Source of the DNA: a virus
Taxonomy: Duplodnaviria > Heunggongvirae > Uroviricota > Caudoviricetes
Length of the DNA: 64,000 nt
IMG/VR virus record: IMGVR_UViG_3300025326_000020
Direction: 5' to 3' (one strand)
Shown here: positions 37,918 to 53,411 of the stretch, piece after piece
Numbering within the stretch: the stretch's first letter is position 1
How the letters are laid out: every line of letters starts with the position of its first letter
Position numbers and translations under genes: made by a program
The notes under the pieces: generated by a model
Told to the model about the DNA's origin: nothing
What the model saw: the letters and a program-made list of their open reading frames with translations, nothing else
Database searches by the model: none

Positions 37918-38113
37918 TCTTTGTACTCCAAGTTCTAATTAGCCAATAGATTGTGGTTCTATTAATTTTTGTAAGTTCTGCTAGCCGTGTTACTTGTTGA
38001 GTCTTAGCCGCAATTTCTAATAAGTCGGCAACTTCAGTTCTTGCTTCTTCAAATTCCTTTTCAGCTTTTCGTAATCTGTCAACAGCCTCCACAAGTGCGT
38101 GATTACTATACAT
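37874..38113 (-). CDS. hypothetical protein
   Basis: ORF. Confidence 0.35.
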   Translation of the reverse strand: MYSNHALVEAVDRLRKAEKEFEEARTEVADLLEIAAKTQQVTRLAELTKINRTTIYWLIRTWSTKNANPNNGYQRKEST

Positions 38114-38118
38114 TTCAA

Positions 38119-38886
38119 TCAGCTCCCATAAGCTTGCAGGAGATTTTGTACTGACTTCTTTACATCTTTTTCTGACATCGCCGCCACAGTAGCAAGGTAG
38201 CTAAACCTAAATGCATCTAGGTGATGTGATCCATTCATCCTCTGACGATCTGATAACATTCTTTGCCTGCGACCATGACGCATTTCCATATCAAGAGTTG
38301 TCACTTGATATGGAGCAATACCAAATTCGGTGAGATCAGCCATTGGATAATTATTCACTAGATAGTCATAGTCATTGTAATACTCTGCTGAATATACTGC
38401 TGCTGCATGACGCAGTCTTCTCTGTGTATCATATGAGTCGTATGTGTCCTGGTCACTAAACAAGAATGGAGCAAGGGCAATAATTCTAGCCTTTTCGGCT
38501 TTGAAACCTCTAGTGCCGAGAATTATCTTACCAGATGCTTCCACTACACCGGCCATTATGGTAGCTCCATACCAGCCTGGCACCGCATTGGGTGTATTCC
38601 CTATCAGATCTTCTAGATCTGATGGGTTGTATCTAGCGTGAATCCCACAGGTACAACCATGGACAGGAATCTGATCCTCCGGCCCATGTTCACCAACCGT
38701 ATCCCCGTTCCAGTTTATTCTAAGTGAACCAAGTATGCTGTTTAGACACTTGGCGACCATTTGATCATCTTTAGGCCAAATTGATTTTTGTACTAGGGCC
38801 TTAAGACCAGCACTGCTCAACTGCCACAAACGGAAACCACGCAGAGTGCTAGGCACCAGCGCTGGATCATGTACATTAGACGACAA
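38119..38886 (-). CDS. hypothetical protein
   Basis: ORF. Confidence 0.45.
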   Translation of the reverse strand: MSSNVHDPALVPSTLRGFRLWQLSSAGLKALVQKSIWPKDDQMVAKCLNSILGSLRINWNGDTVGEHGPEDQIPVHGCTCGIHARYNPSDLEDLIGNTPNAVPGWYGATIMAGVVEASGKIILGTRGFKAEKARIIALAPFLFSDQDTYDSYDTQRRLRHAAAVYSAEYYNDYDYLVNNYPMADLTEFGIAPYQVTTLDMEMRHGRRQRMLSDRQRMNGSHHLDAFRFSYLATVAAMSEKDVKKSVQNLLQAYGS

Positions 38887-39018
38887 CTGGTTCCTCCTGT
38901 AGGACTTCTTCCACTTCCTCTTCTACAACAAGAGGTTCAGTCTCGTCAATAGGTGCAAAGATTACTGTAGTAACTGTACTTCCGGTATCCATATTTTCTC
39001 CTTGTTGTAACAATAAAG

Positions 39019-39090
39019 TACCCCTGGTCAGAATCGAACTGACGACATTCTTATTAAGAGTAAGAAGCTCTACCACTGAGCTACAAGGGC
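39019..39090 (-). tRNA. tRNA-Lys (anticodon CTT)
   Basis: hand-folded cloverleaf: D-arm GCTCAGTGGTAGAGC, anticodon arm TCTTA-CTCTTAA-TAAGA, T-arm GTCAG-TTCGATT-CTGAC; 72 nt. Confidence 0.7.
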
Positions 39091-39308
39091 ATTTCGTTAG
39101 GAGCACAATACGATTGTGACAGATCTCCGTCACCGTGTCAAGCCCCCAACAATATTGATGTTTATCGATGGACACTAGCTAAGGACGAGACATAGTAGCA
39201 CAACCAACACAGTTAATACAATAGCTGTGACAGGAATTCGAACTACGTGTTCCTCACCTGTTTCTTTATTACGAAAACCAACTTCAATGTACTGCAATTT
39301 AGAACCAG

Positions 39309-39794
39309 TCACTTTACTTCTGGAAAATTAAGTTTAGCATGTTCCCCAAAAGCAATTATTGCTGCTCTATCATATGCCAATGCGGCCTCTTCTTCCAATA
39401 AATAATAACCTATATGCTGTCTTTTACCATTTACTTGCACTCTTACATACCACATCCTGTTTGTATTCGACCAAGTTACACCTTTGTACTTAGATAATCC
39501 TGGTCTACGTTTGATGCTATTGGCTCTATTCAACATATAGGTTGTTGGTCGAAGATTTATACGTCTGTTGTCAAGACCATCACCATTTTGGTGATCAGTC
39601 ATTTTAAATCCTGTAAGTAATATATGCATTTTTTGCATAGATTTTAAACCAGAAATTTTAGTTATACTTCTTAATGCATAAAAGATATTACCTTGTAGAT
39701 TACAATACCATTTATACTGTGATACCAGATCGTAGTCTTCATCGTCTACAAGAGCTGACTTATCACTCCTAAAGAGTTCAACTTGTTTTACCAT
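39309..39794 (-). CDS. HNH homing endonuclease with AP2 DNA-binding domain
   Basis: DHQNGDGLDNRRINLR HNH motif; C-terminal AP2-like YKGVTW...WYVRVQVNGKRQHIGYYLLEEEAALAYD. Confidence 0.75.
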   Translation of the reverse strand: MVKQVELFRSDKSALVDDEDYDLVSQYKWYCNLQGNIFYALRSITKISGLKSMQKMHILLTGFKMTDHQNGDGLDNRRINLRPTTYMLNRANSIKRRPGLSKYKGVTWSNTNRMWYVRVQVNGKRQHIGYYLLEEEAALAYDRAAIIAFGEHAKLNFPEVK

Positions 39795-39806
39795 AAGGAT
39801 TGCTCC

Positions 39807-40286
39807 TTAAAACCATGAGTAGTACGACCAACGGTCGTCATAGTGGATCAGTGTTGGTTCTATACCATTCTTAATTTCATGGCACCACATAAGCATTCGA
39901 CCAACCCTACCGTTACCGTCACGGAATGGATGAATGCGCTCGAATGATATGTGTGCCACTCTTGGACTAAGCTCTTGGCAATCCTCAATCCAATCCTTCA
40001 TTAGTTGTGGTACATATAGTGGGTTTGGACATGTGCGTCCACCAACTTCTACCCAACAATCGCGCCATTTACCAGGATCTTTCATCAGACTGCGCATAAC
40101 ATTCCAATGTAAATTCTTGATAGAAGTTTCAGTAACATCAAGATTTAACAATTCTTCAAACGCTTCCATTGAAGCTTGGTCTTGCGTTTTGTGATTTACA
40201 CCTTCAATAAGGTTTGATTGTCTAATATGTTCCATTGTAATTTCAGTCATTGTCATCCCAATCGAATCCATCGTCCGGGTCATCAT
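39807..40286 (-). CDS. Fic-domain protein (putative AMPylating/adenylyltransferase toxin-like)
   Basis: canonical Fic motif HPFRDGNGRVGR. Confidence 0.7.
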   Translation of the reverse strand: MMTRTMDSIGMTMTEITMEHIRQSNLIEGVNHKTQDQASMEAFEELLNLDVTETSIKNLHWNVMRSLMKDPGKWRDCWVEVGGRTCPNPLYVPQLMKDWIEDCQELSPRVAHISFERIHPFRDGNGRVGRMLMWCHEIKNGIEPTLIHYDDRWSYYSWF

Positions 40287-40548
40287 CGTCAGCCCAGTCT
40301 AATTCTTTACGTACCTCTTGCTTTGCTGCGTAATGTGCTTCGATCTCCACAATATCCTCTTCCTGCTTTGGCTGTGGGATTTGCGTAAGACCAAGCACGA
40401 GTCGATCATAGTTCATTTTACTAGGCTTGCGGCATCTAGTGCAAACCCACAGACCTGATGGTGGATCAAGTGAGAAACCATCTTGCTTTTGCCATTTACC
40501 AGTTGAGTGGCAGTTACACCACGGCTTAATGTTCATCTGAGTTATCAT
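40243..40548 (-). CDS. hypothetical protein with acidic C-terminus
   Basis: ORF. Confidence 0.4.
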   Translation of the reverse strand: MITQMNIKPWCNCHSTGKWQKQDGFSLDPPSGLWVCTRCRKPSKMNYDRLVLGLTQIPQPKQEEDIVEIEAHYAAKQEVRKELDWADDDDPDDGFDWDDND

Positions 40549-40579
40549 TGTTGTCCATTTCTAGTAATATTTGGAGGAG

Positions 40580-40652
40580 TACCCCTAGAGAGATTCGAAC
40601 TCCCAACCTACGCGGTAGAAACGCGCTGCTCTGTCCGTTGAGCTATAGGGGC
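40580..40652 (-). tRNA. tRNA-Arg (anticodon TCT)
   Basis: acceptor GCCCCTA/TAGGGGT; D-arm GCTCAACGGACAGAGC; anticodon arm GCGCG-TTTCTAC-CGCGT; T-loop TTCGAAT. Confidence 0.7.
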
Positions 40653-40655
40653 ATG

Positions 40656-40729
40656 TCTCATTGGAGAGATTCGAACTCTCAATCACCACACTTTGAATGT
40701 GGTCGCTTTGCCAGTTAGCGCACAATGAG
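40656..40729 (-). tRNA. class-I tRNA with leucine-type anticodon CAA (identity uncertain)
   Basis: perfect acceptor CTCATTG/CAATGAG; anticodon arm CCACA-TTCAAAG-TGTGG; 5-nt variable loop; T-arm GAGAG-TTCGAAT-CTCTC; discriminator A. Confidence 0.6.
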
Positions 40730-40736
40730 GATTCAA

Positions 40737-40991
40737 TTATGGGCATGTCCAACCATGGGGACCAGTTGGCATGCCCGCTTTTATGTAGCAACTATCACAG
40801 AGGAAGTGTCCATTATTTGGATTATAAGTACCTTCTTCTCTGATAACAGCTTTTATTCTCTTAGCTTGACGTTCCTCTTCCGTCGTTGCATTGTATGAAT
40901 CTTCATCTTCTGCCCATGTTCCATCATATGAAGTCATATCTCTTGCGTATCGTTCGCACATCGGATCGTATGGTTCAGGTATTTCATCCAA
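40737..40991 (-). CDS. hypothetical protein
   Basis: ORF. Confidence 0.4.
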   Translation of the reverse strand: MDEIPEPYDPMCERYARDMTSYDGTWAEDEDSYNATTEEERQAKRIKAVIREEGTYNPNNGHFLCDSCYIKAGMPTGPHGWTCP

Positions 40992-41172
40992 GGGTTTTTA
41001 TCAGCTCCTCAGTAGCCTTACAGTGTTCTAGTACAGCATCCATAGCTTCCTCTTGACTAGCAAGATCAAATCCTGATGTCTTATGAATTCGGCATAGCCA
41101 ACACCAACCACGATATTTCCATACTCGTAGCGGTCGGGCGACCTTATAGTTCTTCACACTGGTTTCATCCAT
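40984..41172 (-). CDS. hypothetical protein
   Basis: ORF. Confidence 0.35.
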   Translation of the reverse strand: MDETSVKNYKVARPLRVWKYRGWCWLCRIHKTSGFDLASQEEAMDAVLEHCKATEELIKTLG

Positions 41173-41378
41173 TGACCTGGTGTACTCTTTCCACAGTATA
41201 GACAGTAATCATGGTCTGGTATGCCACATTGGTCACGTTCTGGAAGATGTCCAGCGAATACGCAAAGTAGCTTTGGCAACCACGTTATGTGGTCATAAAT
41301 ATAATTAGTTAACCACTCTGGTTTACCATCCCAGATCCATAGCATTATTCTACGTCTTATTATGATATTCGCTCCCAC
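41154..41378 (-). CDS. hypothetical protein
   Basis: ORF. Confidence 0.35.
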   Translation of the reverse strand: MGANIIIRRRIMLWIWDGKPEWLTNYIYDHITWLPKLLCVFAGHLPERDQCGIPDHDYCLYCGKSTPGQWMKPV

Positions 41379-41541
41379 ATTACGCCGGAATCTTGGCCCA
41401 GATTAATAAATATCTTGTTCCAACGACCAGTGCAACGTCGACATCTATATAATGAGGTGCTACAAATCAATACTGGCTGTCTAGGTTCCATTATTCGTAT
41501 GCGAGCGTGTAGCCCAACCAGACAGAGAAGATTTGTCATAG

Positions 41542-41901
41542 TTATACCCGCTGAGGATCATATTCATCAGCAAACTTTTCCATCACACGGATAACTTCTT
41601 CCTTAGAAGAAGCCTTATGATCATTCCAGCCTGCAATACCGGAATCACTAATACCTGATGTTCTCATCCAGGTTTGAAATATTTGCATGGCTTGGTTTGC
41701 AAGACCAGTTCTAAAAAGATCACCATTGAAACCGTCTATATGTCCAGTAAGAGCAAACGCAATGACACCCATGGCACACATACCATCAGTAGGTGTACCT
41801 CGTGATCCTTTGATCCATTTTCTATCTGTTAGAACCTGAGCAGCCTTGCGGATAGCCCGACCAGCATTTTCCTCAATTGTTGGCTTCTTACGTCTAGTCA
41901 T
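41542..41901 (-). CDS. hypothetical protein
   Basis: ORF with RBS. Confidence 0.45.
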   Translation of the reverse strand: MTRRKKPTIEENAGRAIRKAAQVLTDRKWIKGSRGTPTDGMCAMGVIAFALTGHIDGFNGDLFRTGLANQAMQIFQTWMRTSGISDSGIAGWNDHKASSKEEVIRVMEKFADEYDPQRV

Positions 41902-42083
41902 TTTGTCTCCTAAGTTTTTAGATGGACACGGTGGGCGATGTCACTAAGTTGTGACGCAGACCATGATCGGTGCCCGTGAACTAATCATGCTGCCATTCCA
42001 TCCCATCCGTGCCCGTGATCTCTGGGTAGGGATTAGCCAACCGTTGACGTCATTGGTTTGGCCATCGTAGGGCGCCTCCCAGC

Positions 42084-42158
42084 GTTCTAGCGCAGAGGTT
42101 CGAACTCCAATTTCCAGATTCAGAATCTGGCGTCCTGCCAATTAGACGATGCTAGAAT
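42084..42158 (-). tRNA. tRNA-Gln-like (anticodon CTG); acceptor/D-arm registration is ambiguous
   Basis: anticodon arm CCAGA-TTCTGAA-TCTGG and T-loop TTCGAAC present; acceptor pairing TTCTAGC/GCTAGAA. Confidence 0.45.
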
Positions 42159-42164
42159 ATTTAG

Positions 42165-42389
42165 TTATTGTTCTCTCACATCTGGTAGTATTCCATGGTC
42201 CCTGTGGTTCTTTGCTACTTCAACCACAGCAACCAAATCATCTAGTTGCTCAGCATCTATAGTGATGTGCATGCCATGCGTAATTATCATATATGCGTTG
42301 CTAGCTAAATCATGAAATAGTCCGACTTCTTTCTTCCAAAAGAGACGAGTATAATTACGCATCGTAACACTTCTTTCCATCTTGTTCAA
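42165..42389 (-). CDS. hypothetical protein
   Basis: ORF. Confidence 0.35.
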   Translation of the reverse strand: MNKMERSVTMRNYTRLFWKKEVGLFHDLASNAYMIITHGMHITIDAEQLDDLVAVVEVAKNHRDHGILPDVREQ

Positions 42390-42600
42390 TGACGATAGTG
42401 TCTACCTGGCTTAGTCTATAAAATCCACTATCCTCATTGTATGGCATACCAGATGTTATATAATCTCTAGCTTCTTTTATGGTTTTGAACGATTTTATAG
42501 TTCGTCCACAACTTACTTGAAATGTTCTGAAATGCCACGGTTCTGGCGTTGTATATTTTGCATTGTGAGTCGTCACGAGCCAAGCGAGTGATTCGAACAC
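42355..42600 (-). CDS. hypothetical protein
   Basis: ORF; N-terminus overlaps tRNA-Thr by ~20 nt. Confidence 0.35.
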   Translation of the reverse strand: MFESLAWLVTTHNAKYTTPEPWHFRTFQVSCGRTIKSFKTIKEARDYITSGMPYNEDSGFYRLSQVDTIVIEQDGKKCYDA

Positions 42601-42649
42601 TCTACTCCTGTTTACAAGACAGGTGCTTTTCCCATTAAGCTAGCTTGGC
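42578..42649 (-). tRNA. tRNA-Thr (anticodon TGT)
   Basis: acceptor GCCAAGC/GCTTGGC; anticodon arm CCTGT-CTTGTAA-ACAGG; T-arm GAGTG-TTCGAAT-CACTC. Confidence 0.7.
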
Positions 42650-42657
42650 ATATTCAA

Positions 42658-43161
42658 TTATTCAAGCACCTTTTCGTATTGCTGTGGAAGTGTCCAACCT
42701 AGCAGTGATAGTCTACGCAGTGAGGTAGCAACCATACCACTACCTTGACCCGTAATTGGTGTATTGCCCATGACCTCTTCCATAATTCTTACGTAGTCAC
42801 GATCAATGATTAGGTATGGCAATAGGTTACTGACAATTACAACCATACCAGCACCAGTAACAGTCCATCGAGCTATTGCTGGAAGATAAAGATTTTCTAC
42901 TGGGACTTCACCTACGTGAGTGTGTGCATGTGGACAATGTTCTGAACATCCACGACGCATAAAATCTCTTACAGGTTGTGGTTTCTTTGCGTCAGCCTTT
43001 AAACCAGTTAGTACGCCAAGCTCTTGAATAACTGCAATCTCTTTACTTTCAACAGATAGTATAATTTGTGGAGTCGCTCGTTGCTTGTTGTGTTTACGCA
43101 GAAATCTTCCTTTTAAATCTATGACTCCTGCCATCCATCCTAGTTTAATATCTGGTATCAT
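42658..43161 (-). CDS. hypothetical protein with a degenerate LAGLIDADG-like motif
   Basis: GWMAGVIDLKGRF near the N-terminus; His/Cys cluster CSEHCPHAHTH. Confidence 0.4.
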   Translation of the reverse strand: MIPDIKLGWMAGVIDLKGRFLRKHNKQRATPQIILSVESKEIAVIQELGVLTGLKADAKKPQPVRDFMRRGCSEHCPHAHTHVGEVPVENLYLPAIARWTVTGAGMVVIVSNLLPYLIIDRDYVRIMEEVMGNTPITGQGSGMVATSLRRLSLLGWTLPQQYEKVLE

Positions 43162-43186
43162 CTTTATTCCTTTTTGTTGTCATGTG

Positions 43187-43261
43187 TACCGACGGTCAGA
43201 CTTGAACTGACAACCACTAACTTATAAGGTTAGCCGCACTGACCAATTGGCGTACGTCGGC
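43187..43261 (-). tRNA. tRNA-Ile (anticodon TAT)
   Basis: acceptor GCCGACG/CGTCGGT; anticodon arm CTAAC-CTTATAA-GTTAG; T-arm GTCAG-TTCAAGT-CTGAC. Confidence 0.6.
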
Positions 43262-43289
43262 TCGCCCCGAAGGGCTTTGTGCTTTTCTA

Positions 43290-43676
43290 TCAGGTGACTT
43301 CGACCCAGTACGACTCAACATCATCGTTGTGCCAGAATCCGAAGTTTGCAGACTGGTTTGGTGAAAGCGTCACAGAACCCTGACCAAACTGGTTCGAACA
43401 ACCAAGATTGTCGTGGAAGGTAATGTAGATTCCATTTCCGCCAGTCATCTTGTTAACAGCACTAGAGATAATGTTGCGCCATCCAGATGGAAGATTGGAA
43501 CATCCACCACCGCCAACGGAAATATCGTATCTACTGCCGTTACCACCAGAGTCAACATAAATGCAGGCCCGACCTGATGGGCAGGCAGAATATGATGCAC
43601 TAGCCGGTGACGCAATTACAATTACAAGTCCTAGTGAAACCAGGAGTGTTGCTAGAACTGCACGTACCTTGCGCAT
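43290..43676 (-). CDS. secreted small Cys-containing protein (beta/gamma-crystallin or I36 inhibitor-like)
   Basis: N-terminal signal peptide ...ASPASAS; paired Cys; Gly-rich beta strands. Confidence 0.5.
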   Translation of the reverse strand: MRKVRAVLATLLVSLGLVIVIASPASASYSACPSGRACIYVDSGGNGSRYDISVGGGGCSNLPSGWRNIISSAVNKMTGGNGIYITFHDNLGCSNQFGQGSVTLSPNQSANFGFWHNDDVESYWVEVT

Positions 43677-43740
43677 TTAAGCTCCTATTGTTATTATACG
43701 GATAACGGTGGTGTAATCCCACCCAAAGTTTACAGACTTC

Positions 43741-43953
43741 TCATATTAATTTTTCTAATTCTTCTCGAAAATATTCTGCTATTTCATCAATTGTTATTGT
43801 GCCTGCGTAGATAGCTTCTTCAATAGAACCCACAGGTAGCACAGTATCCTGTTTTCTGTCATCGTGTAACAAACTCCAGACTAACTGTGCTACCGTGCGC
43901 AATATTAATTCATGCTTTGTTCTACTCGCCCAGTTCTTTTTGTTCGAACTCAC
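43741..43953 (-). CDS. hypothetical protein
   Basis: ORF. Confidence 0.35.
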   Translation of the reverse strand: MSSNKKNWASRTKHELILRTVAQLVWSLLHDDRKQDTVLPVGSIEEAIYAGTITIDEIAEYFREELEKLI

Positions 43954-44122
43954 GCGAACCCATCACGAGTGTGTTGATTCTAGCTGCAAAATCTTGTGCC
44001 TCATGATCTCGCATTCTTAGAAATCCAGCATAAGCTCGGTGTTCCTCGTCAGGTCCGATATATACTCTAACCTCACGATGTTCACCTTGCAACTCAGTTA
44101 ACACTGCATGCATACTTGTCAT
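43922..44122 (-). CDS. hypothetical protein
   Basis: ORF. Confidence 0.35.
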   Translation of the reverse strand: MTSMHAVLTELQGEHREVRVYIGPDEEHRAYAGFLRMRDHEAQDFAARINTLVMGSREFEQKELGE

Positions 44123-44125
44123 GTG

Positions 44126-44413
44126 TTACTTCTTGCAGGTCGGATCATTTGGCACTACGGCAATGGCGCCATAGGGACTGTCACTATGGAAGAGTACATA
44201 CAAACGATTGCCATGATCACACTTAGTGGCCGCATTCGAGAATCCATCAGGCATGACAATAATATCGGCTGATTCAGTATTTTCAGTACCTGATCGTGGA
44301 GCATCGTTAAACGGTTCCTTTGCTTTGGCCCCACAACTAGTGGACAAGGCAACCGCAAGAATCCCAACAATTAGGCAAGCAAATAATGGTAGCAAAGACT
44401 TAATTTTAGTCAC
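44126..44413 (-). CDS. lipoprotein
   Basis: signal peptide with lipobox LSTSC. Confidence 0.55.
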   Translation of the reverse strand: MTKIKSLLPLFACLIVGILAVALSTSCGAKAKEPFNDAPRSGTENTESADIIVMPDGFSNAATKCDHGNRLYVLFHSDSPYGAIAVVPNDPTCKK

Positions 44414-45429
44414 TACTTGCCTCCGGCATTAGCACTAACAAGTACACCGCCACCAGCGGCCAAACATAGACCCGGCGGAACTCCCATCTTAACCGATTCC
44501 TCTATGCACTTGTTTTGTACATAAAGAGGTGTCAAAACCTGGGCTAGAAGGTCAGAAACGGCCTTTTCAGCCAGGGCGTTTGTCTTCTTCTGTGCTAGTA
44601 CTCTAGCCTGCGCGATAACATCCTGGAACTGCTGAATGTTCTTTTCAGTTTGTGCATCATGGTGTACTAGTGGAATGGATACAGTCTTGACATCTACCAG
44701 ACCGTCAAATGCCGTTACCAGCTTGTTCTTAACATCTGTTTGTAGCTGGGTACCATCAAACCCAACCTGACCAGTCTGTAGATTTACCTGAGACAGGGGG
44801 TTATAGGTTGCAAAAACGTCGTTAAGCGCGTTCTGAATAACTGTTTCATACAGATTGTTCTTAACATTATTGAAATCACCCTTGTAGTCAAGGAACAACT
44901 TAGGTGCACCAGTCTCAGTAACCTGTAGCTGGATCCTATTCTCTACACATGCAGTAGCAAGTGAGCCAATACGTACGGTAGTACAACCTTCCTTCCAATT
45001 ACCAAGATGGTTGATTGTGACTACAGACGCATCGAAGTCCTCAACACTCTGCCAAGGCCAAACGAAGTGCAAACCGCTACCTGTGGTGTCTCCAGTAGGA
45101 CGGTTGAACGTGCTAACAATACCAACATTCCGTACTGGCACAGTGTATGCACTAGCAAAGAACATTAATATAGCAGCTAACGAAGCTAGTGCAATTGTTA
45201 CTACCTTAGAGGAATTATGTTCAGCAGCAGCAGCAGATTCCATATCCTTCTTTGATGGGCGATCAACATAAGCTCGATAGTCGCTACTTGCGGTATCTGC
45301 TGCCACAGCCTTATCGTATTCACTTTTTGCCTCAATGAAATCTTTCTTTGCTGATTTCTTCCACAAAAAAGCAAGAACAGCAAGAACAGCAACAGTGATG
45401 CCTAGTACAAATTCCCAGCTCAATTTCAT
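44413..45429 (-). CDS. membrane-anchored SPFH/band-7 domain protein
   Basis: N-terminal transmembrane helix; VRNVGIVSTFNRP...GLHFVWPW resembles the SPFH core. Confidence 0.5.
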   Translation of the reverse strand: MKLSWEFVLGITVAVLAVLAFLWKKSAKKDFIEAKSEYDKAVAADTASSDYRAYVDRPSKKDMESAAAAEHNSSKVVTIALASLAAILMFFASAYTVPVRNVGIVSTFNRPTGDTTGSGLHFVWPWQSVEDFDASVVTINHLGNWKEGCTTVRIGSLATACVENRIQLQVTETGAPKLFLDYKGDFNNVKNNLYETVIQNALNDVFATYNPLSQVNLQTGQVGFDGTQLQTDVKNKLVTAFDGLVDVKTVSIPLVHHDAQTEKNIQQFQDVIAQARVLAQKKTNALAEKAVSDLLAQVLTPLYVQNKCIEESVKMGVPPGLCLAAGGGVLVSANAGGK

Positions 45430-45461
45430 TCCTTAAATAGTTGTCATTTTGACGTGTTACG

Positions 45462-45532
45462 TTCAAGCACCTAGATTCGAACTAAGACTACCATATCCAA
45501 AGTATGGTGGGCTACCCTTACCCCATGCTTGA
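45462..45532 (-). tRNA. tRNA-Gln (anticodon TTG)
   Basis: perfect acceptor TCAAGCA/TGCTTGA; anticodon arm CCATA-CTTTGGA-TATGG; T-arm CTTAG-TTCGAAT-CTAGG. Confidence 0.65.
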
Positions 45533-45710
45533 TTATATTGCAGAGTTAAATGCGGATATAACACGTGCTGGTTTACCATCTTCATTTGGGTCAGACACGC
45601 GTCTAATCGCTTCTGACAAAACACTGTCAGGATCTAACTTCCACAACTCATTGAGTGGAAGCTTAGTTATATCAACCAAACCATCAGGTTGATGTTCCAT
45701 ATGACACTCC

Positions 45711-46202
45711 TCACTTTATGTCGATGAGCTGATTTGTTATTGGTGACAGCACCTGTACTTCCAAGACACCATCACAACCAGAAACATATGCACGTAATCT
45801 ACCAAGAGTTATGTACCAAATGTCTTCTTTAATTTCCATTCTAGATATATCAGAAATCTCCGACCGTCGACTAAGAGCACGCTGAGTTAAATTGGCTGCT
45901 TCTCTAAGATTGACTATATGCTTAACTATCTCACCATTAAGATCGAATGCTCTGGCTCTGAATCTGTAGCCGAGTCCAATAGAATAACGTTTGATGTCGA
46001 CCATGAATAAATTATTGGGATCAGTGGTTTCTATTCTACCTATAGTGTACTTAGACACACCAATCTTAACCCCAAGTTCGGGCTGTGTTGGTATTTTTGG
46101 CGTTAGTGCCCGACGAAGTTCGCCGAGTAACATTTCTATCCTTTCACTAGGACCAAGAATTGGGCTGGTGATATGAAATTTCAAATTCCATAGTCTTGCC
46201 AT
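45711..46202 (-). CDS. helix-turn-helix DNA-binding protein
   Basis: HTH segment ELGVKIGVSKYTIGRIE. Confidence 0.45.
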   Translation of the reverse strand: MARLWNLKFHITSPILGPSERIEMLLGELRRALTPKIPTQPELGVKIGVSKYTIGRIETTDPNNLFMVDIKRYSIGLGYRFRARAFDLNGEIVKHIVNLREAANLTQRALSRRSEISDISRMEIKEDIWYITLGRLRAYVSGCDGVLEVQVLSPITNQLIDIK

Positions 46203-46329
46203 GGAACTGCGTGTTATATTCTATATCTTTAATATCAATACCGTCATTGTTTAACATAGCATGAAATATGGCTTCCGAAACAATCAACCATTCAGCAGCA
46301 CCGAATGGTTTTACGCTAAATACTTTCAC
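46147..46329 (-). CDS. hypothetical protein
   Basis: ORF. Confidence 0.3.
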   Translation of the reverse strand: MKVFSVKPFGAAEWLIVSEAIFHAMLNNDGIDIKDIEYNTQFHGKTMEFEISYHQPNSWS

Positions 46330-46330
46330 G

Positions 46331-46403
46331 TCCCCCCGACAGGACTCGAACCTGCGTCTATGCCTTAAAAGGGCACAGCTAATTCCATCTCAGCTACGGA
46401 GGG
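46331..46403 (-). tRNA. tRNA-Lys (anticodon TTT)
   Basis: acceptor CCCTCCG/CGGGGGG; anticodon arm GTGCC-CTTTTAA-GGCAT; T-arm GCAGG-TTCGAGT-CCTGT. Confidence 0.65.
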
Positions 46404-46411
46404 CTATTCAG

Positions 46412-46774
46412 TTATAATACTTCCCATAGTGCGCGGTGACGATGTCGAGGATTAATAGGTACCACGTCCTCGACATCGTCTTTGTCCATCTTGATTATAT
46501 CACGTGCCTGCATGCGCCAGGTATTACGTGCCTTACCGTTGTCTTCCTGAACATATGAATCAAGCCAACCGCCAGGACGACCATATAGTTTGCTGCCCAG
46601 AGTACTGTAGTAACCATATGCTGGTTTGTATCCACAGGTGATGTCACTGTAAAACTTGATGACCTGACCGTCGAAATCACAATCTTTGTTATGGTGATTG
46701 TGATGTTCAATACGGAGATTAGGATTCTTAGCAACCTGAATCTCCCAACGATCCGTCTTGTCTGTCATTGACAA
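46412..46774 (-). CDS. hypothetical protein
   Basis: ORF. Confidence 0.4.
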   Translation of the reverse strand: MSMTDKTDRWEIQVAKNPNLRIEHHNHHNKDCDFDGQVIKFYSDITCGYKPAYGYYSTLGSKLYGRPGGWLDSYVQEDNGKARNTWRMQARDIIKMDKDDVEDVVPINPRHRHRALWEVL

Positions 46775-46804
46775 GATTACCTTTCCACGTTGGACCTTCC
46801 AACG

Positions 46805-47188
46805 TTACCTTACAACATCATCGTCTCCTTTACCATCGAAGGCATCCTCTTGTAGGTGCCAGCAGTGTTCACAACCATCTTTCCAGCATGGTTCGTCTTT
46901 TTTAAAGATTGCCTTGGCAGCAACACATCCTGCTTCTACTGGTAGTACTAGCAATTCCTCTTGTTTTTTGCTCATCCAGTGAAATGTCTCTGTATATGAG
47001 CTATACCACCAAGATTGAAATTTTGTGTTCTCTTCTTTATTTCCAAGATGTTCGAATATCCACCCTGATACTCCACAGCAAGGACATATACGATCTGTTA
47101 GCCACTCATAGATATTAGACCACCATGGTGCTTCAACTATAGCAACGTGGTCGCCATCTTTGTGATACCAAACATGAACTCTTAACAT
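46805..47188 (-). CDS. Cys-rich hypothetical protein
   Basis: ORF. Confidence 0.4.
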   Translation of the reverse strand: MLRVHVWYHKDGDHVAIVEAPWWSNIYEWLTDRICPCCGVSGWIFEHLGNKEENTKFQSWWYSSYTETFHWMSKKQEELLVLPVEAGCVAAKAIFKKDEPCWKDGCEHCWHLQEDAFDGKGDDDVVR

Positions 47189-47225
47189 GTGTCCTCCTCG
47201 GACTTAGATACTGTCATTGTCCATG

Positions 47226-47432
47226 TTATATCACCACCTCACTACTGAAAGGATGACTTTCTCTAAGGTGAGCCTGCACAGCTTCCACAAGTCCTCTTAC
47301 ATAGTAACCACCAAGAACAGCAGGTAAGTCCTGTTCGAAATCTGGACATTCATCACAATATAAGAAGACCATTAATTCATCAAATTTACTTGACCATGGA
47401 ACTATTCGCATTGTATCTAAAATACTTGACAT
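47226..47432 (-). CDS. hypothetical protein
   Basis: ORF. Confidence 0.35.
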   Translation of the reverse strand: MSSILDTMRIVPWSSKFDELMVFLYCDECPDFEQDLPAVLGGYYVRGLVEAVQAHLRESHPFSSEVVI

Positions 47433-47433
47433 G

Positions 47434-47504
47434 CTCCCATACCTGGAATCGAACCAAGATCATGTGATTAACAGTCACAGGTTTTGCCATTAAACTATAC
47501 GGGA
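47434..47504 (-). tRNA. tRNA-Asn (anticodon GTT)
   Basis: acceptor TCCCGTA/TATGGGA; D-arm GTTTAATGGCAAAAC; anticodon arm TGTGA-CTGTTAA-TCACA; T-arm CTTGG-TTCGATT-CCAGG. Confidence 0.7.
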
Positions 47505-47533
47505 TTGACCACCACCGTAGTGATGGCTTGAAA

Positions 47534-48502
47534 TTATTCTGCGTGTAGTGAGGTGCTATTCAATGCAGCCTTACAAGCTGTAGTCACATCGTCAACAGTT
47601 AGACTGGTTGTTGGCAGCTTTGCGACGATAGCTGCCGCCAATGCTTCGATGTCTATTTCTATTGATTTTTCTGTGTTTAAATATGTACCATTCAACACAC
47701 CTAAAGTGGTCATTTCTGCTGGTATACCACGACCAGCATATTGCCACGGAATAGCCCGAAGTTGAGTTCTAATTATGTCATTGATTTCCTCTTTGCCAAT
47801 TAAGGCTCCAGCAAGAAACTTGTTGAACTCATCCTGTGTCATATTATCCTCCGAAGCGGCAATGAATTCCTGTAGTTGCACAAGCGTACCACGATATGCA
47901 TTGGCATCGCAAGTTGTTTGGTTGCCAATAGTTGTCATAGATCCATACTGTAGAATTTCTACCTTTTTACCTACAACAGGGTTCCAGCGCGAGGATGTGT
48001 CACCAGGGTAAGTCTTCTTATAGTGTGCTGTTGGGTTAGTTCCGTAGTTACTAGACCATAAAGGATACTTTAAATCTTTTAATTTATCGCCGTACAGCCA
48101 CGGGGGCGCGTACGCAAATATCGACGACGCAGGGCTGCCTGTACGGGCCTGCAAGGCCACTCCGAACGCGTTGACTTCCGCTATCGTCGGAGCGCGATCC
48201 ATGTACGGAAACTTCTCAGCATCAATTTGCCATATCCACGATACGTCTTTCCACCATGGTGTTTCAGCATTGACGATCTGTAAAAACCAATCTATCTGGT
48301 CAGTTACCGAGCCAGGATGATTAACATAGTAGGCACCAAGAACAGGAATACCAAGTCCTTTAGCTGCATTGAGTGCGGCTTTGTATTCGCTATCCTTGTA
48401 GCTGTGGTGACCCTCTGCACACTTGTGCGTGTAAAAGTCAATGCCATCTCTGACTGTTGGTGGTGCATCATAGTGACTAGTTTCGATCCCAGCCGTAAAC
48501 GG
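47534..48502 (-). CDS. endolysin, GH25 muramidase N-terminal domain + C-terminal domain; the annotated Met (48202) is internal and the catalytic region extends upstream without a canonical start in frame
   Basis: upstream in-frame translation ...GIETSHYDAPPTVRDGIDFYTHKCAEG...GLGIPVLGAYYV matches GH25 motifs; an ATG at 48504-48506 is in the +1 frame (MTVYGWDRN-stop). Confidence 0.55.
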   Translation of the reverse strand, partial: PFTAGIETSHYDAPPTVRDGIDFYTHKCAEGHHSYKDSEYKAALNAAKGLGIPVLGAYYVNHPGSVTDQIDWFLQIVNAETPWWKDVSWIWQIDAEKFPYMDRAPTIAEVNAFGVALQARTGSPASSIFAYAPPWLYGDKLKDLKYPLWSSNYGTNPTAHYKKTYPGDTSSRWNPVVGKKVEILQYGSMTTIGNQTTCDANAYRGTLVQLQEFIAASEDNMTQDEFNKFLAGALIGKEEINDIIRTQLRAIPWQYAGRGIPAEMTTLGVLNGTYLNTEKSIEIDIEALAAAIVAKLPTTSLTVDDVTTACKAALNSTSLHAE

Positions 48503-48522
48503 TCATGGTGGCATCACCTCTC

Positions 48523-48966
48523 TTAAGATAAGCCTCTGTGCTTATCACGTCTGATTTTAGCACACTTCTTACAAGTGCGCTTGTTCTTACTGTTCATCAG
48601 ATTGTCCTCGGTTAGAGGATGTCCACGCAGACAGAATTCTTTTTCAGAATTTATTTTACTGATACCATGTAAACCTTCGCGTGAAGCGTTGGCATTAATT
48701 GTTTTAGGTTCCATATGATATGGATTACAGCATATCGAGTTGTCGCACAGATGATCGATAACCAAACCATTTGGTATATCACCAATTAATAACTCATATG
48801 CAACACGATGAGCGTAGTAATGAAAACCTCTTAATCTAAAGTCGCCATACCCTTTACCTGCTGAGACTACACTCTTAGTCCAAGGCCAACAACCCTCTGG
48901 ACCAGTGAGATCTACCTTAGACCAAAAGGTAGAAATCTCAATGTACTCAATAGGAAAGGTCGTCAT
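48523..48966 (-). CDS. HNH endonuclease
   Basis: GLVIDHLCDNSICCNPYHMEP HNH core. Confidence 0.65.
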   Translation of the reverse strand: MTTFPIEYIEISTFWSKVDLTGPEGCWPWTKSVVSAGKGYGDFRLRGFHYYAHRVAYELLIGDIPNGLVIDHLCDNSICCNPYHMEPKTINANASREGLHGISKINSEKEFCLRGHPLTEDNLMNSKNKRTCKKCAKIRRDKHRGLS

Positions 48967-48967
48967 C

Positions 48968-49153
48968 CTACTCCTCGCTTGGCGCTGGAGTATGTCTGTT
49001 CCCGTCAGTCAGTACTTTGTGACAATTCACGCAGTCAAAGTAAGTTTCATCTGTTTCGTCTAAAGCTTCTTCTAATGTAATTGCTTTGTCGCCTTCAACT
49101 TCTTCGGTGCATAGAGCATGTAGCTTTGGTTCATCTAGTACATGAATTGTCAT
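48968..49153 (-). CDS. small zinc-ribbon protein
   Basis: CVNCHKV...C. Confidence 0.35.
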   Translation of the reverse strand: MTIHVLDEPKLHALCTEEVEGDKAITLEEALDETDETYFDCVNCHKVLTDGNRHTPAPSEE

Positions 49154-49159
49154 GTGTTA

Positions 49160-49235
49160 CCTCCTTGATTCAGTAGCAAGAATCGAACTTGCACATTGAC
49201 GCCGAGTAACCAGCCGCCTCTTCCATTTGGGCTAT
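49160..49235 (-). ncRNA. tRNA-like element or pseudogene with no foldable anticodon arm
   Basis: perfect acceptor TTCAGTA/TACTGAA and T-arm GCAAG-TTCGATT-CTTGC; 74 nt; central region fails to form a 5-bp/7-nt anticodon arm. Confidence 0.4.
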
Positions 49236-49368
49236 ACTGAACTTAGTAAGTTAAGGTTACTGCTAGCGACCTCCACAGCATACGTACGATACTGACGGAA
49301 CCCATTCGCCTGACCCGTATAGTCCTACTGCCATCGTGCCCGTCGACACTCCCTCACCTTAACTTACG

Positions 49369-49441
49369 CGCGATCGACCGGATTCGAACCGGCATACCCC
49401 ACCTTGACAGGGTGGTTCATTAACCATTATGATACAACCGC
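49369..49441 (-). tRNA. tRNA-Asp (anticodon GTC)
   Basis: acceptor GCGGTTG/CGATCGC (two G-U pairs); D-arm TCATAATGGTTAATGA; anticodon arm CCACC-CTGTCAA-GGTGG; T-arm GCCGG-TTCGAAT-CCGGT. Confidence 0.65.
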
Positions 49442-49557
49442 AAGTGAGTACTTCCGAATGATATGCCACAGTCAAACACATTCGGATTAGCATGACAATC
49501 GTACCTAGCTGTGGCCGGTATTCATGCCGTGACGGTACTCGCGCCAACTCTTAGGTG

Positions 49558-49854
49558 TTACTGGAATTTCTTGTGAAGCTTTATCTTAGCTAGTGTGTTA
49601 TTCCTGTTGACCATAGGCCCTGTGGTGCTTACGTGCAGGTCAGACAGAATCTCATCTATTACATCGTTGCGAATTTTATCCTCAACTCTGCTCCGATATG
49701 CTTTCATCACTGGTGTTAGTTTATCCAACATGTGATCACCTATACCAACAAAAAAGTCAGCTAGTGCATCAGCTTCTTCCGTTGTCATATCAGTATCACG
49801 GTGTGCATTTACCAGGAACTTGTTGCGTATCGCATCGGCTGTAACAGTTAACAT
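49558..49854 (-). CDS. hypothetical protein
   Basis: ORF. Confidence 0.4.
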   Translation of the reverse strand: MLTVTADAIRNKFLVNAHRDTDMTTEEADALADFFVGIGDHMLDKLTPVMKAYRSRVEDKIRNDVIDEILSDLHVSTTGPMVNRNNTLAKIKLHKKFQ

Positions 49855-50046
49855 TTATAACTCCACTAGTTCTATTCGTGTACTATAGTTGAATCATCAT
49901 ATTCAGTTGGCCCGTCCTTGTACAACTCACGGTACTGTTTGAGTCCAATTGAAAACTCGAACGCGCGGTCGCTATCACCTTTGATTTCCGCACGCTTTAT
50001 TTCAAGTAAGTATTCACGTTCAATAGTATCAAACTTCTTGCTCATG

Positions 50047-50119
50047 TGGACAGTATCGGATTCGAACCGATCGCCTTCGCATTGCAGGTGCGATGCTCTA
50101 CCTAATGAGCTAACCGCCC
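50047..50119 (-). tRNA. tRNA-Ala (anticodon TGC) with unusual C33
   Basis: D-arm GCTCATTAGGTAGAGC; anticodon arm TCGCA-CCTGCAA-TGCGA; T-arm ATCGG-TTCGAAT-CCGAT. Confidence 0.6.
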
Positions 50120-50216
50120 TAGTGAGTGCTGTTCTATGTAGTTAACACTACAGATCTCAAACTTTATGGAATACCTCGCGAGTACCCAATGGCTAGCACT
50201 CATAGCCAAGATTATA

Positions 50217-51218
50217 TCAGTTGATAAGCAGCAACTTAGTACCAGGAACCAACTTGCGGTTCACCGATGTTGATTGCACAAATACGTCGAACTTGTCATT
50301 ATCTTCTGGTGAAACTCGAACTTCTTCTGGACGCAAACCAAGCATATCACGAACCTGATCACCTGAGAAGACTCTGCCTGTGGATTTTTCTAGTACAGCA
50401 ATGTTCTTTTGTGGTTGAATAGATTCTCTCTTTGTAAGTTGGTAGTAAGCAATACCAAGGTAAAAGTTGTGTCCCTTGCCAATTACCCACTCACGAATAG
50501 GAGCAGCTTCATCAACATCAAGCATAGTGAATTTGGTTTTAGGCAGTGCCTTAAGCTTCGCTGCCTTGATGGTAGCCTTGTTTAGTGCAGTTGCATCCAT
50601 CTGGAATAAAGATCTGGAACCACGCACACCCGATGTTCGACTAACCATGAAATTTTCAGTTGCTTGTCTGATAGTCTTACCAACTTCAACAACACCTTGT
50701 GCACTGGTAGCATCCCAAATTGCGATGTTGTCTGCTGGGAAACCAAACTTCTTAGCTTCAAATTTGCACCGTTGATCAGGTACTAAGACAGCCACAGTCC
50801 AATGATCTGGTTGTGTTGCCAATCGGTTGAGTAGATCTGATGGACGTCGATGACTTGCATTTTCCTGTCCATCAGTAAGAACGTATGTTAGGAACGCGTG
50901 ATCTCCATAAAGTTCAGGAGTATGTCCTAGATCTTCTTGTGACTTTAGAGTTGCATCGATCAGTGCAGTCATTCCCGCCGTACGGTAGTGCTTTGCAATA
51001 GATGGCAGACGAAGAACATCCTTGTCGTATACCACGCACTGTACAGCATCGGAAAAGACATAAACACTAACTCTAGTTTCTTGATCCAATTCCTTAGATC
51101 GTTGTGCTAGGTATGCGGTTTGTGCATCTGCCACCTGAACAACTTCTCTTGACAAATCTCTCATGGAGTCAGATGCATCAAGAACAAGAGCAATGTGATT
51201 AATATAATTTGCTGACAT
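50217..51218 (-). CDS. von Willebrand factor A (vWA) domain protein
   Basis: N-terminal MIDAS-like LVLDASDSM...VYVFSD; 333 aa. Confidence 0.6.
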   Translation of the reverse strand: MSANYINHIALVLDASDSMRDLSREVVQVADAQTAYLAQRSKELDQETRVSVYVFSDAVQCVVYDKDVLRLPSIAKHYRTAGMTALIDATLKSQEDLGHTPELYGDHAFLTYVLTDGQENASHRRPSDLLNRLATQPDHWTVAVLVPDQRCKFEAKKFGFPADNIAIWDATSAQGVVEVGKTIRQATENFMVSRTSGVRGSRSLFQMDATALNKATIKAAKLKALPKTKFTMLDVDEAAPIREWVIGKGHNFYLGIAYYQLTKRESIQPQKNIAVLEKSTGRVFSGDQVRDMLGLRPEEVRVSPEDNDKFDVFVQSTSVNRKLVPGTKLLLIN

Positions 51219-51247
51219 GATATCCCTTTTGTTATAGTTTAATTGAG

Positions 51248-51319
51248 TAGTCCCATAGGGAATCGAACCCTATCCTACGCGGTGAAAGCGCGCAAAGCTA
51301 ACCAATACTCAATGGGACC
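51248..51319 (-). tRNA. tRNA-Glu (anticodon TTC)
   Basis: acceptor GGTCCCA/TGGGACT; anticodon arm GCGCG-CTTTCAC-CGCGT; T-arm TAGGG-TTCGATT-CCCTA. Confidence 0.65.
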
Positions 51320-51520
51320 GAATGCTCAGATGTACTTATTACCTACCATACCTTGTTGAGCTAGCTTACCTAACCGTCGCCAGGTAGAATGTACTTTCTG
51401 CAACTGATCTGGACGGTTAATTGTACTGGTAAACTTGTTCAGGAACTCACGTTCGATGGTACTATATGGCGTTTTAGTGCTGTATACCAGCGTGTTGTCT
51501 ACCATGAGCCCATTTCCTGT

Positions 51521-51709
51521 CTAGTCGAATACCTTGTTACAATTGGTACAAACCCATCGCCTCTTACCATTAATTGGTGGCAATGATTTTATATAGCTAA
51601 CAACCGGTATGGCATTGGGATCATGATGCCAACATCTTTGTTGAATTCTTTTTATAGTTGATATAGCAGTAATTGCGAATTTATACTTGAATACAACAAA
51701 TTCCATCAA
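51521..51709 (-). CDS. small zinc-ribbon protein
   Basis: C-terminal WVCTNCNKVF. Confidence 0.35.
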   Translation of the reverse strand: MMEFVVFKYKFAITAISTIKRIQQRCWHHDPNAIPVVSYIKSLPPINGKRRWVCTNCNKVFD

Positions 51710-52092
51710 GAACCAACCTGTTGACCGTCATTGTCCCAGTGAAACTCAACCACTGGTCGGTGCACACGACAGTTAACACAGTAAGTGGCACCGTAAAATT
51801 TTGGGTCACGAGCATAGGTTTCTGAAATCGATTGTGACATTGTTGTTACAACACCACAGTAATCGTGTACATAGCTGTTGCGGTAAGGTCTAACAAAACC
51901 CTTACCACGTTCCTCTTCGGACAGAACCAAATAAACCTCAGCCTGTGGTACTGGCGGCCCATCTAATGATTCTGCCCCACGTGTTAATCTAGGATCGCTA
52001 GGATCAGATGTTGTTCCTGTCATCGTATCTCCACTGGTGTCAGGTTGGCATGACCTCATCCCATACCAGCTTCTTAGTTCAGTGTTCCGCAC
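51706..52092 (-). CDS. hypothetical protein (YCVNCRVHRP motif)
   Basis: ORF. Confidence 0.4.
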   Translation of the reverse strand: MRNTELRSWYGMRSCQPDTSGDTMTGTTSDPSDPRLTRGAESLDGPPVPQAEVYLVLSEEERGKGFVRPYRNSYVHDYCGVVTTMSQSISETYARDPKFYGATYCVNCRVHRPVVEFHWDNDGQQVGS

Positions 52093-52175
52093 CTGAATAA
52101 TATAAGAAGCCGCTCTTTGAACCTCTAGTACTTATGCGGTCCGTACTGTGTTACGAGTCTAAGCTACACCTGACG

Positions 52176-52247
52176 TCGGGATAGAAGGAATTGAACCTTC
52201 TGCCTCTCGCTCCCAAAGCGAGCGTTCTTCCGATGAACTATATCCCG
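52176..52247 (-). tRNA. tRNA-Pro (anticodon TGG)
   Basis: perfect acceptor CGGGATA/TATCCCG; anticodon arm CTCGC-TTTGGGA-GCGAG; T-arm GAAGG-TTCAATT-CCTTC. Confidence 0.7.
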
Positions 52248-52387
52248 TATGTATTAGGAGGGGAATTAGTTTTGCTGGCGCTAGCAATTCCATGGATACC
52301 ATTGCACTCTTTGAGGAACCAGACAGCGATCAACTTGCTGGCGATGCATAGTCGTCAACTACATCCCCTGTCTAACACGACTACCTG

Positions 52388-52460
52388 TCGACTACTCAGG
52401 AGTTGAACCTGAATCTCCCATGTTATCAGCATGGTGCTTTACCTGTTAAGCTAATAGTCG
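52388..52460 (-). tRNA. tRNA-Ile (anticodon GAT)
   Basis: acceptor CGACTAT/GTAGTCG; D-arm GCTTAACAGGTAAAGC; anticodon arm CCATG-CTGATAA-CATGG; T-arm TCAGG-TTCAACT-CCTGA. Confidence 0.7.
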
Positions 52461-52631
52461 TTGGATGGTGATGAAAATTACCTCACATCCATGTTTCTAT
52501 CTAATCGGCCAGATCGTATAGCATGGATTCTTTTGGCTCTAATCAACGGAGTATGAACAGAACGGCTCACTTGTTAACATACTCTTTTACCATCTAGGTT
52601 TCCTATAGATCGTGCACTATCTACTGGTCCC

Positions 52632-52712
52632 GTGGGTCGGAAGGATTCGAACCTTCATCACCGGCATTGCTGCCCGCTCTACCATTTGAGCTACTAACCC
52701 TCGAACAGCGCA
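52632..52712 (-). ncRNA. tRNA-like element: canonical D-arm and T-arm, GNRA tetraloop hairpin (GGCA-GCAA-TGCC) in place of the anticodon arm, mismatched acceptor; 3' side ends in the CGACCCAC repeat
   Basis: D-arm GCTCAAATGGTAGAGC; T-arm GAAGG-TTCGAAT-CCTTC; no anticodon loop; 5'/3' acceptor strands not complementary. Confidence 0.45.
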
Positions 52713-52853
52713 ATCTTCGTCTTCCAGGACTAGGATACTATTGCTGCCGGTCCCCTGGAAAGGACTTGCACAGAACAGGATTATGAGTCCTGCCCAGTAC
52801 CTTTATCGTGGAGAGTGGTTAGCTCTCCACGCCCGGTTACCAGCCGGGAGCTA

Positions 52854-53381: not shown

Positions 53382-53411
53382 AATTTCCAAAGTTTCTACT
53401 ATTTTACGAAG

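Follow-up and report, generated by a model that had tools for sequence, protein, structure and literature searches.

Fic enzymes act as toxins, as anti-phage defence genes and as reversible regulators, and, to our knowledge, the function of those encoded by phages is essentially unstudied. Among the described systems closest to the gene considered here, FICD/HYPE (human; FIC-1 in C. elegans) is a class II enzyme that both AMPylates and deAMPylates BiP, and it carries a membrane anchor, TPR repeats and a dimer interface that sets the direction of the reaction. SoFic of Shewanella oneidensis, a single-gene anti-phage system, is a protein of about 370 aa that has a dimerisation helix at its N-terminus and DNA-binding domains at its C-terminus. 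Small class II Fic proteins of cellular origin are represented by CdFic (C. difficile CD0569, 235 aa) and BT_2513 of B. thetaiotaomicron, and the class III protein NmFic of N. meningitidis has its inhibitory helix at the C-terminus. The inhibitory glutamate (E_inh) blocks AMPylation-competent binding of ATP and is required for deAMPylation, and the catalytic histidine (H_cat) is required for both; SoFic deAMPylates EF-Tu constitutively, and its AMPylation needs dimerisation via the helix that leads into the inhibitory helix (bioRxiv 10.64898/2026.07.09.737422).

Here we describe a Fic gene, hereafter mini-Fic, in a 64,000-nucleotide stretch of phage DNA (the window). Its product is about 24-27% identical to FICD, which has about 27 additional residues between inhibitory helix and core and about 60 after the last shared helix, whereas the membrane anchor, the TPR repeats and the direction-setting interface of FICD are all missing from mini-Fic. 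The dimerisation helix and accessory domains of SoFic are likewise absent, so that none of the dimerisation and target-binding domains that regulate FICD and SoFic is found in this phage-encoded protein. CdFic and BT_2513, at 20-24% identity, exceed it by 70-130 residues, and its inhibitory helix is N-terminal, unlike that of NmFic. We propose that mini-Fic is a stand-alone minimal class II Fic enzyme, most likely one that would modify a host protein by reversible AMPylation during infection, as its characterised relatives would lead one to expect; we hold this reading with moderate confidence.

The Fic core, its catalytic motif and its inhibitory helix

The mini-Fic ORF matches the Pfam Fic/DOC model PF02661 with 55.4 bits (E 1.2e-14); because the gathering score of that model is 24, the match is far above chance and the feature is real. 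The catalytic motif was read directly from the bases (Table 1) and fits HPFx(D/E)GN(G/K)R followed by a second Arg (R130), with H119, P120, F121, D123, N125, G126, R127, G129 and R130 invariant in homologs. An earlier sequence-only reading of this DNA had seen a perfect Fic active-site motif in a compact Fic-domain protein, to be checked against an HMM for the Fic/Doc subfamily, and both the profile score and the bases agree with it.

AlphaFold2, given 35 homologs, models mini-Fic with high confidence (pLDDT 94.2, pTM 0.87). Seven helices (residues 18-27, 33-47, 53-64, 89-105, 108-118, 125-139 and 149-156) and a short hairpin at about 80-85 make up the all-helical Fic core with its beta-hairpin flap. 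When the model was compared with the PDB by Foldseek, only Fic proteins were retrieved, FICD being the top match (E about 3e-7), and the class I, class III and effector folds scored lower (NmFic 13.2, VbhT 12.4, VopS 9.8, Doc 5.8). The prediction thus gives a Fic core, the lack of which had been named in advance as evidence against the proposal. In the flap, all 35 homologs share G72, R75 and V79, and nearly all share V81, G82 and P87; the family profile aligns the region with the FICD flap 'GRFRTTQVLVGHHIPP'; by analogy with established Fic structures, the mini-Fic flap is presumed to be the beta-hairpin on which the target docks.

Table 1. Features of the mini-Fic locus and further features of the window, in window coordinates
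Feature	Position	Strand	Basis and remarks
99-aa ORF	38876..39175	-	overlaps tRNA-Lys(CTT); almost certainly spurious
tRNA-Lys(CTT)	39018..39090	-	ARAGORN; Rfam 67.2 bits; downstream Fic neighbour kept in L009 and L010
Promoter-like site	39113..39141	-	TTGACA-17 nt-CACAAT with TG extension; just upstream of tRNA-Lys(CTT)
45-aa ORF with hydrophobic C-terminal segment	39175..39312	-	ORF list; beside the HNH gene, in a segment missing from relatives
HNH-AP2 free-standing endonuclease gene, 161 aa	39309..39794	-	PHROG 99; own AGGAG ribosome-binding site
mini-Fic gene	39807..40286	-	ORF list; 159 aa counted from the first ATG
Fic catalytic motif H119-PFRDGNGRVGR130	39897..39932	-	read directly from the bases
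Flap region G72..P87, 'GKWRDCWVEVGGRTCP'	40026..40073	-	short strands at about residues 80-85 of the model
Inhibitory motif S24-N-L-I-E28-G29, first helix (alpha-inh)	40200..40217	-	read from the sequence
g101, 101 aa, Cys-rich, zinc-ribbon-like, poly-Asp tail	40243..40548	-	ORF list; overlaps the Fic ORF
tRNA-Arg(TCT) and tRNA-Leu(CAA)	40579..40729	-	ARAGORN, Rfam; upstream of the g101-Fic pair
tRNA-Ile(TAT)	43186..43261		recurs in L007, L010, L015 and L037
tRNA-Ser(ACT)	49167..49241		no Rfam confirmation
Weak tRNA-like match	52633..52700		Rfam
Ro60/TROVE and vWA protein, 543 aa	54650..56281	-	Pfam 2.2e-58 and 5.4e-35; inside the tRNA array
Weak tRNA-like match	62363..62421		Rfam
tRNA-???	63050..63137		anticodon uninterpretable; Rfam tRNA 50 bits

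The catalytic motif also bears on the chemistry of the enzyme. In Doc a Lys replaces the second Gly of the motif, and in AnkX an Ala replaces the first. The motif of mini-Fic has the fully canonical AMPylation form HPFxDGNGR..R, which argues against phosphorylation (Doc), phosphocholination (AnkX) or UMPylation (AvrAC) as its reaction; such another chemistry is very unlikely in our view, even if similar Fido cores do perform these reactions (bioRxiv 10.64898/2026.07.09.737422) and a PHROG 'Doc-like toxin' family is matched weakly (E 0.0073). Doc itself, the death-on-curing kinase of P1, was rejected as a counterpart: its degenerate Lys motif, truncated Fido core and Phd partner were not found here.

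Residues 24-29 of mini-Fic, SNLIEG, match the inhibitory motif (S/T)xxxE(G/N) exactly and lie within the first predicted helix (18-27). Such a regular expression is weak by itself, being found in 11% of shuffles of the mini-Fic protein, and since the match alone is not significant we base the claim on conservation and on structural alignment. Across 35 homologs of 34-51% identity, S24, N25, I27 and E28 never vary, and neither do the catalytic residues. The family profile matches FICD with an E-value of 1.9e-26; its segment 'iefirqSNlIEgv' aligns to 'YHHIYHTVAIEGNT' of FICD, its helix with the regulatory Glu234, so that the mini-Fic motif stands opposite HTVAIEGN of the FICD inhibitory helix.

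The same pattern holds across the family. An exhaustive HMM search was reduced to 148 cluster representatives at 50% identity, all of which keep the catalytic His; 146 keep the inhibitory Glu and two have Asp. The strict Fic motif occurs in 140 representatives, and SNx[ILMV]E is found 92-118 aa upstream of it in 138 of these, with Asp for Glu in the other two. The eight representatives without the strict motif differ only at P/F positions and keep the Glu. Full HPFx[DE]GN[GK]RxxR is present in 137 of the 148, and the other 11 retain the His and the D-x-NGR-x-GR core.

Judged by its sequence, mini-Fic is a class II Fic protein in the classification of Engel and co-workers (2012), probably autoinhibited in cis. 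From the alignments and a 147-residue superposition on FICD, we infer that Glu28 would reach Arg127/Arg130 and obstruct the gamma-phosphate of ATP. Class III (NmFic type) was rejected, as no inhibitory motif follows residue 130 and the chain stops at 159, 29 residues past the catalytic loop. The sequence-only reading had seen no obvious antitoxin-like inhibitory helix and had suggested looking for the motif in the protein and in small ORFs nearby. The first statement is overturned by the conserved SNLIEG helix; the search succeeded within the protein, and a regex scan found (S/T)xxxE(G/N) in none of the seven neighbouring ORFs checked.

The start codon probably lies further downstream than annotated. 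ATG 40250 (M13) or ATG 40256 (M11) is more likely than ATG 40286, because homologs begin 5-12 residues ahead of the SNLIEG motif, because residues 1-10 have low confidence in the model (pLDDT about 60) and because ATG 40250 overlaps the stop of the upstream ORF as ATGACTGA. The true length of the protein is then probably 147-149 aa. The several ATG codons at the N-terminal end are spurious and arise where the GAT/GAC codons of the g101 poly-Asp tail are read in the +1 frame. No Shine-Dalgarno sequence was found at any candidate mini-Fic ATG; the HNH gene has AGGAG. Translation of Fic is probably coupled to that of g101.

The phage and the neighbourhood of the Fic gene

An HK97-type capsid protein, a protease, a tape measure protein and a minor tail protein are encoded on the plus strand of the window, and DNA polymerase I, a primase, an exonuclease, a Sak4-like annealing protein and a holin on the minus strand; annotations for contigs of this phage add ThyX, a dCTP deaminase and an SNF2 helicase. 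The phage has turned up in two metagenomes of JGI and in two runs of SRA. The minus strand also bears 27 tRNA genes, single or paired among small ORFs over 25 kb (39018..63267) and not packed closely together, and an Rfam scan of the window returned tRNAs only. The phage, of which mini-Fic is an accessory gene, is tRNA-rich, siphovirus-like and probably virulent, a virulent lifestyle being likely because no integrase was found among the window ORFs scanned. A near-identity DNA search with 38000..42000 against 50,697 phage records gave no match, and in protein searches with the capsid and the DNA polymerase no cultured phage exceeded about 34% identity.

Genes for Inhibitor_I36 (with a signal peptide), DUF6197, FxSxx-COOH and Band_7/SPFH proteins occur among the tRNA genes, and Lsr2 in a related phage (43290..43676, 41542..41901 and 44413..45429, minus strand, in the window; 4584..4751 in L001; 10283..10783 in L005). 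Inhibitor_I36, DUF6197, FxSxx-COOH and Lsr2 are families that we take to be associated with actinobacteria, a hint that the host is actinobacterial despite a GC content of 43%. The tRNA array also contains a Ro60/TROVE gene (Table 1), and no Y RNA was detected in the window at the Rfam gathering thresholds.

The Fic gene belongs to a block of genes in the order g101, Fic, g255, g79, g294, g165, which is common to three related phages (L007, L009 and L010) and partly kept in a fourth (L015). The tRNA-Arg(TCT) gene upstream of the g101-Fic pair has a counterpart at the same place in L007, L010 and L015. Downstream, tRNA-Lys(CTT) follows about 80 nt past the Fic stop in L009 and L010, and tRNA-Leu(CAA) stands there in L007. 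In the window, the interval between Fic and the tRNA is 716 nt, and a single alignment gap is filled by the endonuclease gene and the 45-aa ORF. Of four contigs of this phage, two (L001 and L003) have the latter called as a gene, and no homologs of it were found in related phages.

The endonuclease matches PHROG 99 'HNH endonuclease' (1.2e-30) over residues 65-157; Pfam AP2 scores 24.1 bits, under its cut-off of 33.3, and no Pfam HNH model was matched. The label 'HNH-AP2' seems reasonable on these profile matches, and the sequence-only reading was right that Fic adjoins such a gene in a phage. It had also taken the endonuclease to suggest that the locus is mobile, a suggestion that the comparison with relatives does not support. 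In L007, L009 and L010 the downstream tRNA follows Fic with no HNH gene in between, and a homolog with 45% identity is located elsewhere in L010, at 9311-9748, downstream of g165. The mobile unit is therefore the endonuclease gene, an independent selfish insertion functionally untied to Fic and uninformative on the mobility or function of the Fic gene. Beyond this insertion, a CTTGACA block at the site equivalent to the promoter-like sequence of Table 1 is invariant before the downstream tRNA in L007, L009 and L010, which suggests a conserved promoter that may open a new transcription unit after the Fic gene.

The gene next to Fic on the other side, g101, has a C-x-C ... C-x2-C pattern and a poly-Asp/Trp tail (DWADDDDPDDGFDWDDND), and no Pfam or PHROG match was obtained for its family. 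Homologs with 55-60% identity lie immediately upstream of Fic in L007, L009 and L010, where the rest of the block is also syntenic, and none occurs at more distant mini-Fic loci. All-against-all comparison of 237 flanking ORFs from 41 mini-Fic phage loci gave 210 clusters, and those with several members contained only the syntenic genes of close relatives. Neither this clustering over 41 loci nor the regex scan of neighbours revealed a conserved partner or antitoxin gene: mini-Fic is a single-gene module.

These results weigh on the idea of a class I-type toxin that would receive its inhibitory helix from a separate small antitoxin, as part of a toxin-antitoxin or addiction module. The overlap of g101 with the Fic ORF, and its place beside Fic in three related phages, would fit such a pair. 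The inhibitory motif is nevertheless conserved in cis, g101 and the other neighbours lack (S/T)xxxE(G/N), and distant mini-Fic loci have neither a g101 homolog nor a conserved neighbour family. This reading is already contradicted and almost certainly wrong. The VbhT/VbhA and FicT/FicA systems were rejected as counterparts on the same grounds, with no motif in the seven neighbours and no neighbour family conserved over the 41 loci.

A functional link between Fic and tRNA genes was also rejected. tRNA genes lie within about 6 kb of Fic at 10 of 36 mini-Fic loci, four of which belong to close relatives of this phage, and we judge that this proximity reflects placement in accessory regions. Dense tRNA arrays within 6 kb of Fic are also seen in three unrelated mini-Fic phages of IMG/VR (L037, L043 and L072), the last of which comes from a 488-kb contig and has five tRNA-Leu isoacceptors and a tRNA-SeC call.

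The mini-Fic family and related Fic systems

The mini-Fic subfamily comprises proteins of about 150-170 aa in at least 520 clusters at 50% identity (family profile, E <= 1e-30); nearly all of the best 150 clusters are 150-200 aa long and matched end to end. About 100 aa separate the inhibitory from the catalytic motif, compared with about 130-140 in ordinary class II proteins, and about 33 aa follow the catalytic motif, compared with 60 or more. We compared viral and genome hits ranked by likeness to the query, taking the best 80 of the matches listed for each. The short tail was found in 40 of the best 80 IMG/VR viral hits and in one of the 82 Fic ORFs in the best 80 hits from 185,579 species-representative genomes, and short spacing and short tail were combined in none of those 82. 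This shows that the mini architecture is enriched in viral contigs and not exclusive to viruses. One relative (P0033, 163 aa, 36% identity) is encoded beside mutS on a cellular-looking contig, and the role of the family thus need not be phage-specific.

Among cultured phages (INPHARED) no close relative was found, the best match reaching 36% identity over only a portion of a gene about 300 aa long, and BFVD returned longer viral Fic proteins only. Streptococcus satellite phages and prophage-like records contain homologs at about 30% identity. The family is large, mostly viral in the collections scanned and uncharacterised, and it retains the inhibitory helix and the catalytic core only. Among the complete class II Fic proteins found, its members rank with the smallest, and all solved class II structures matched are larger. 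Two longer proteins were noted, P0150 (250 aa), in which a mini-Fic domain is joined to an N-terminal HNH nuclease (PF01844), and P0235 (365 aa), in which it is joined to an RNase_T exonuclease; they are single cases and may be true fusions or merged gene calls.

Among described families, the best matches were PDC-S04 of PADLOC (1.3e-21) and PHROG 11900 (6.5e-19), each covering nearly the whole of mini-Fic. PDC-S04, a candidate single-gene defence system, consists of Fic proteins about 205-245 aa long; like PHROG 11900, it is functionally uncharacterised. mini-Fic corresponds to positions 38-193 of 227 in PDC-S04 and 38-195 of 230 in PHROG 11900 and is about 35 residues shorter at each end. 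The PADLOC model for SoFic was matched at 1.2e-18, over positions 98-217 of 361 only. Membership of the SoFic family was rejected, the NCBIfam equivalog NF046030 giving 29.3 bits over 33 residues against a cut-off of 550, and so was mobile mystery protein B (TIGR02613), with 17.9 bits against a cut-off of 124.4. The gene sits in a phage, outside any defence island.

That the top PADLOC matches are PDC-S04 and SoFic raises the possibility of phage-carried defence or exclusion, in which a latent toxin would be freed on superinfection, AMPylate a host factor and abort the competing phage, much as in the single-gene systems SoFic and PDC-S04 and with the Fic genes that Streptococcus phage satellites carry. 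The homologs in Streptococcus satellite phages and prophage-like records are in keeping with it, and autoinhibition in cis would suit a latent toxin. Yet the phage looks virulent: it encodes a DNA polymerase and a primase of its own and 27 tRNAs, and no integrase was seen in the ORFs scanned. In the best 80 of the matches listed for the 185,579 species genomes, where defence genes of prophages would be expected, the mini architecture is all but missing. Moreover, the wHTH/C-terminal domain of SoFic is reported to be necessary for toxicity (PMC12249575), and mini-Fic does not have it. We regard defence or exclusion as improbable.

Proposed activity and direction of the reaction

The Fic fold, every catalytic residue and the inhibitory motif in cis are present in mini-Fic and conserved across a virus-enriched family. 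In the arrangement that we propose for reversible AMPylation, an N-terminal inhibitory helix with Glu28 precedes the Fic core, to which the flap, the H119-PFRDGNGR127 loop and Arg130 belong. By analogy with FICD, SoFic, NmFic and VbhT, a segment of the target protein would dock onto the flap as an additional beta-strand, and His119 would serve as the general base. As long as Glu28 occupies its site, ATP would not bind productively, and the resting enzyme would be a poor AMPylator. This Glu-in state may be the form able to hydrolyse AMP off the modified residue, with Glu28 positioning a water molecule; displacement of the terminal helix would switch AMP transfer on.

For the direction in which the enzyme works in the cell, we consider AMPylation of a host target a reasonable prospect, somewhat short of an even chance, and AMP removal as the main activity a rather doubtful one, other activities taking up the rest. 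AMPylation of a host protein could serve host takeover or abortive-infection-like control, both of which the sequence-only reading had suggested. The slight lean to AMPylation comes from the motif, which has the fully canonical form for AMP transfer, and from the fact that most characterised bacterial Fic proteins act in this way.

AMP removal could serve counter-defence, with mini-Fic staying Glu-in and erasing AMP laid down by Fic toxins or abortive-infection systems of the host, such as that of SoFic on EF-Tu or of FicT on GyrB/ParE. The Glu needed for deAMPylation is almost invariant in the family and the catalytic His is invariant. mini-Fic has no regulatory or dimerisation domain, and SoFic removes AMP constitutively while adding it depends on dimerisation. 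SoFic is an established and PDC-S04 a candidate anti-phage gene, mini-Fic matches the models of both, and its architecture is over-represented in viral contigs when these are compared with cellular genomes. The Fic-1-AntF complex is reported to act as a deAMPylase (PMC13327609). This support is purely circumstantial, however: the reading presupposes a Fic-based defence in the host of the phage, and no phage deAMPylase surfaced in the literature searched. Nor does conservation of the Glu discriminate, since about 90% of canonical Fic proteins, a figure reportedly due to Engel and co-workers in 2012, retain the inhibitory motif whatever their role. A counter-defence deAMPylase is in our judgement unlikely, if worth keeping in mind. 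The wider proposal that the whole family consists of bare, permanently Glu-in counter-defence cores of phages, which as constitutive deAMPylases would reverse AMPylation of EF-Tu, gyrase or other proteins, is more doubtful still; no phage anti-defence of the deAMPylase type was found described in the literature searched, and it would be the first.

Reversible AMPylation of a host protein thus remains the reading that we prefer for mini-Fic. The annotation of the locus is corrected to a class II Fic protein, probably inhibited in cis, with a probable later start codon, next to an HNH gene that is an independent insertion. The mini-Fic family offers a tractable model of how the inhibitory glutamate balances AMPylation and deAMPylation without regulatory domains. 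If its members add AMP, they would represent a new modification for host takeover; if they remove AMP laid down by host defence, they would form a new class of anti-defence protein.
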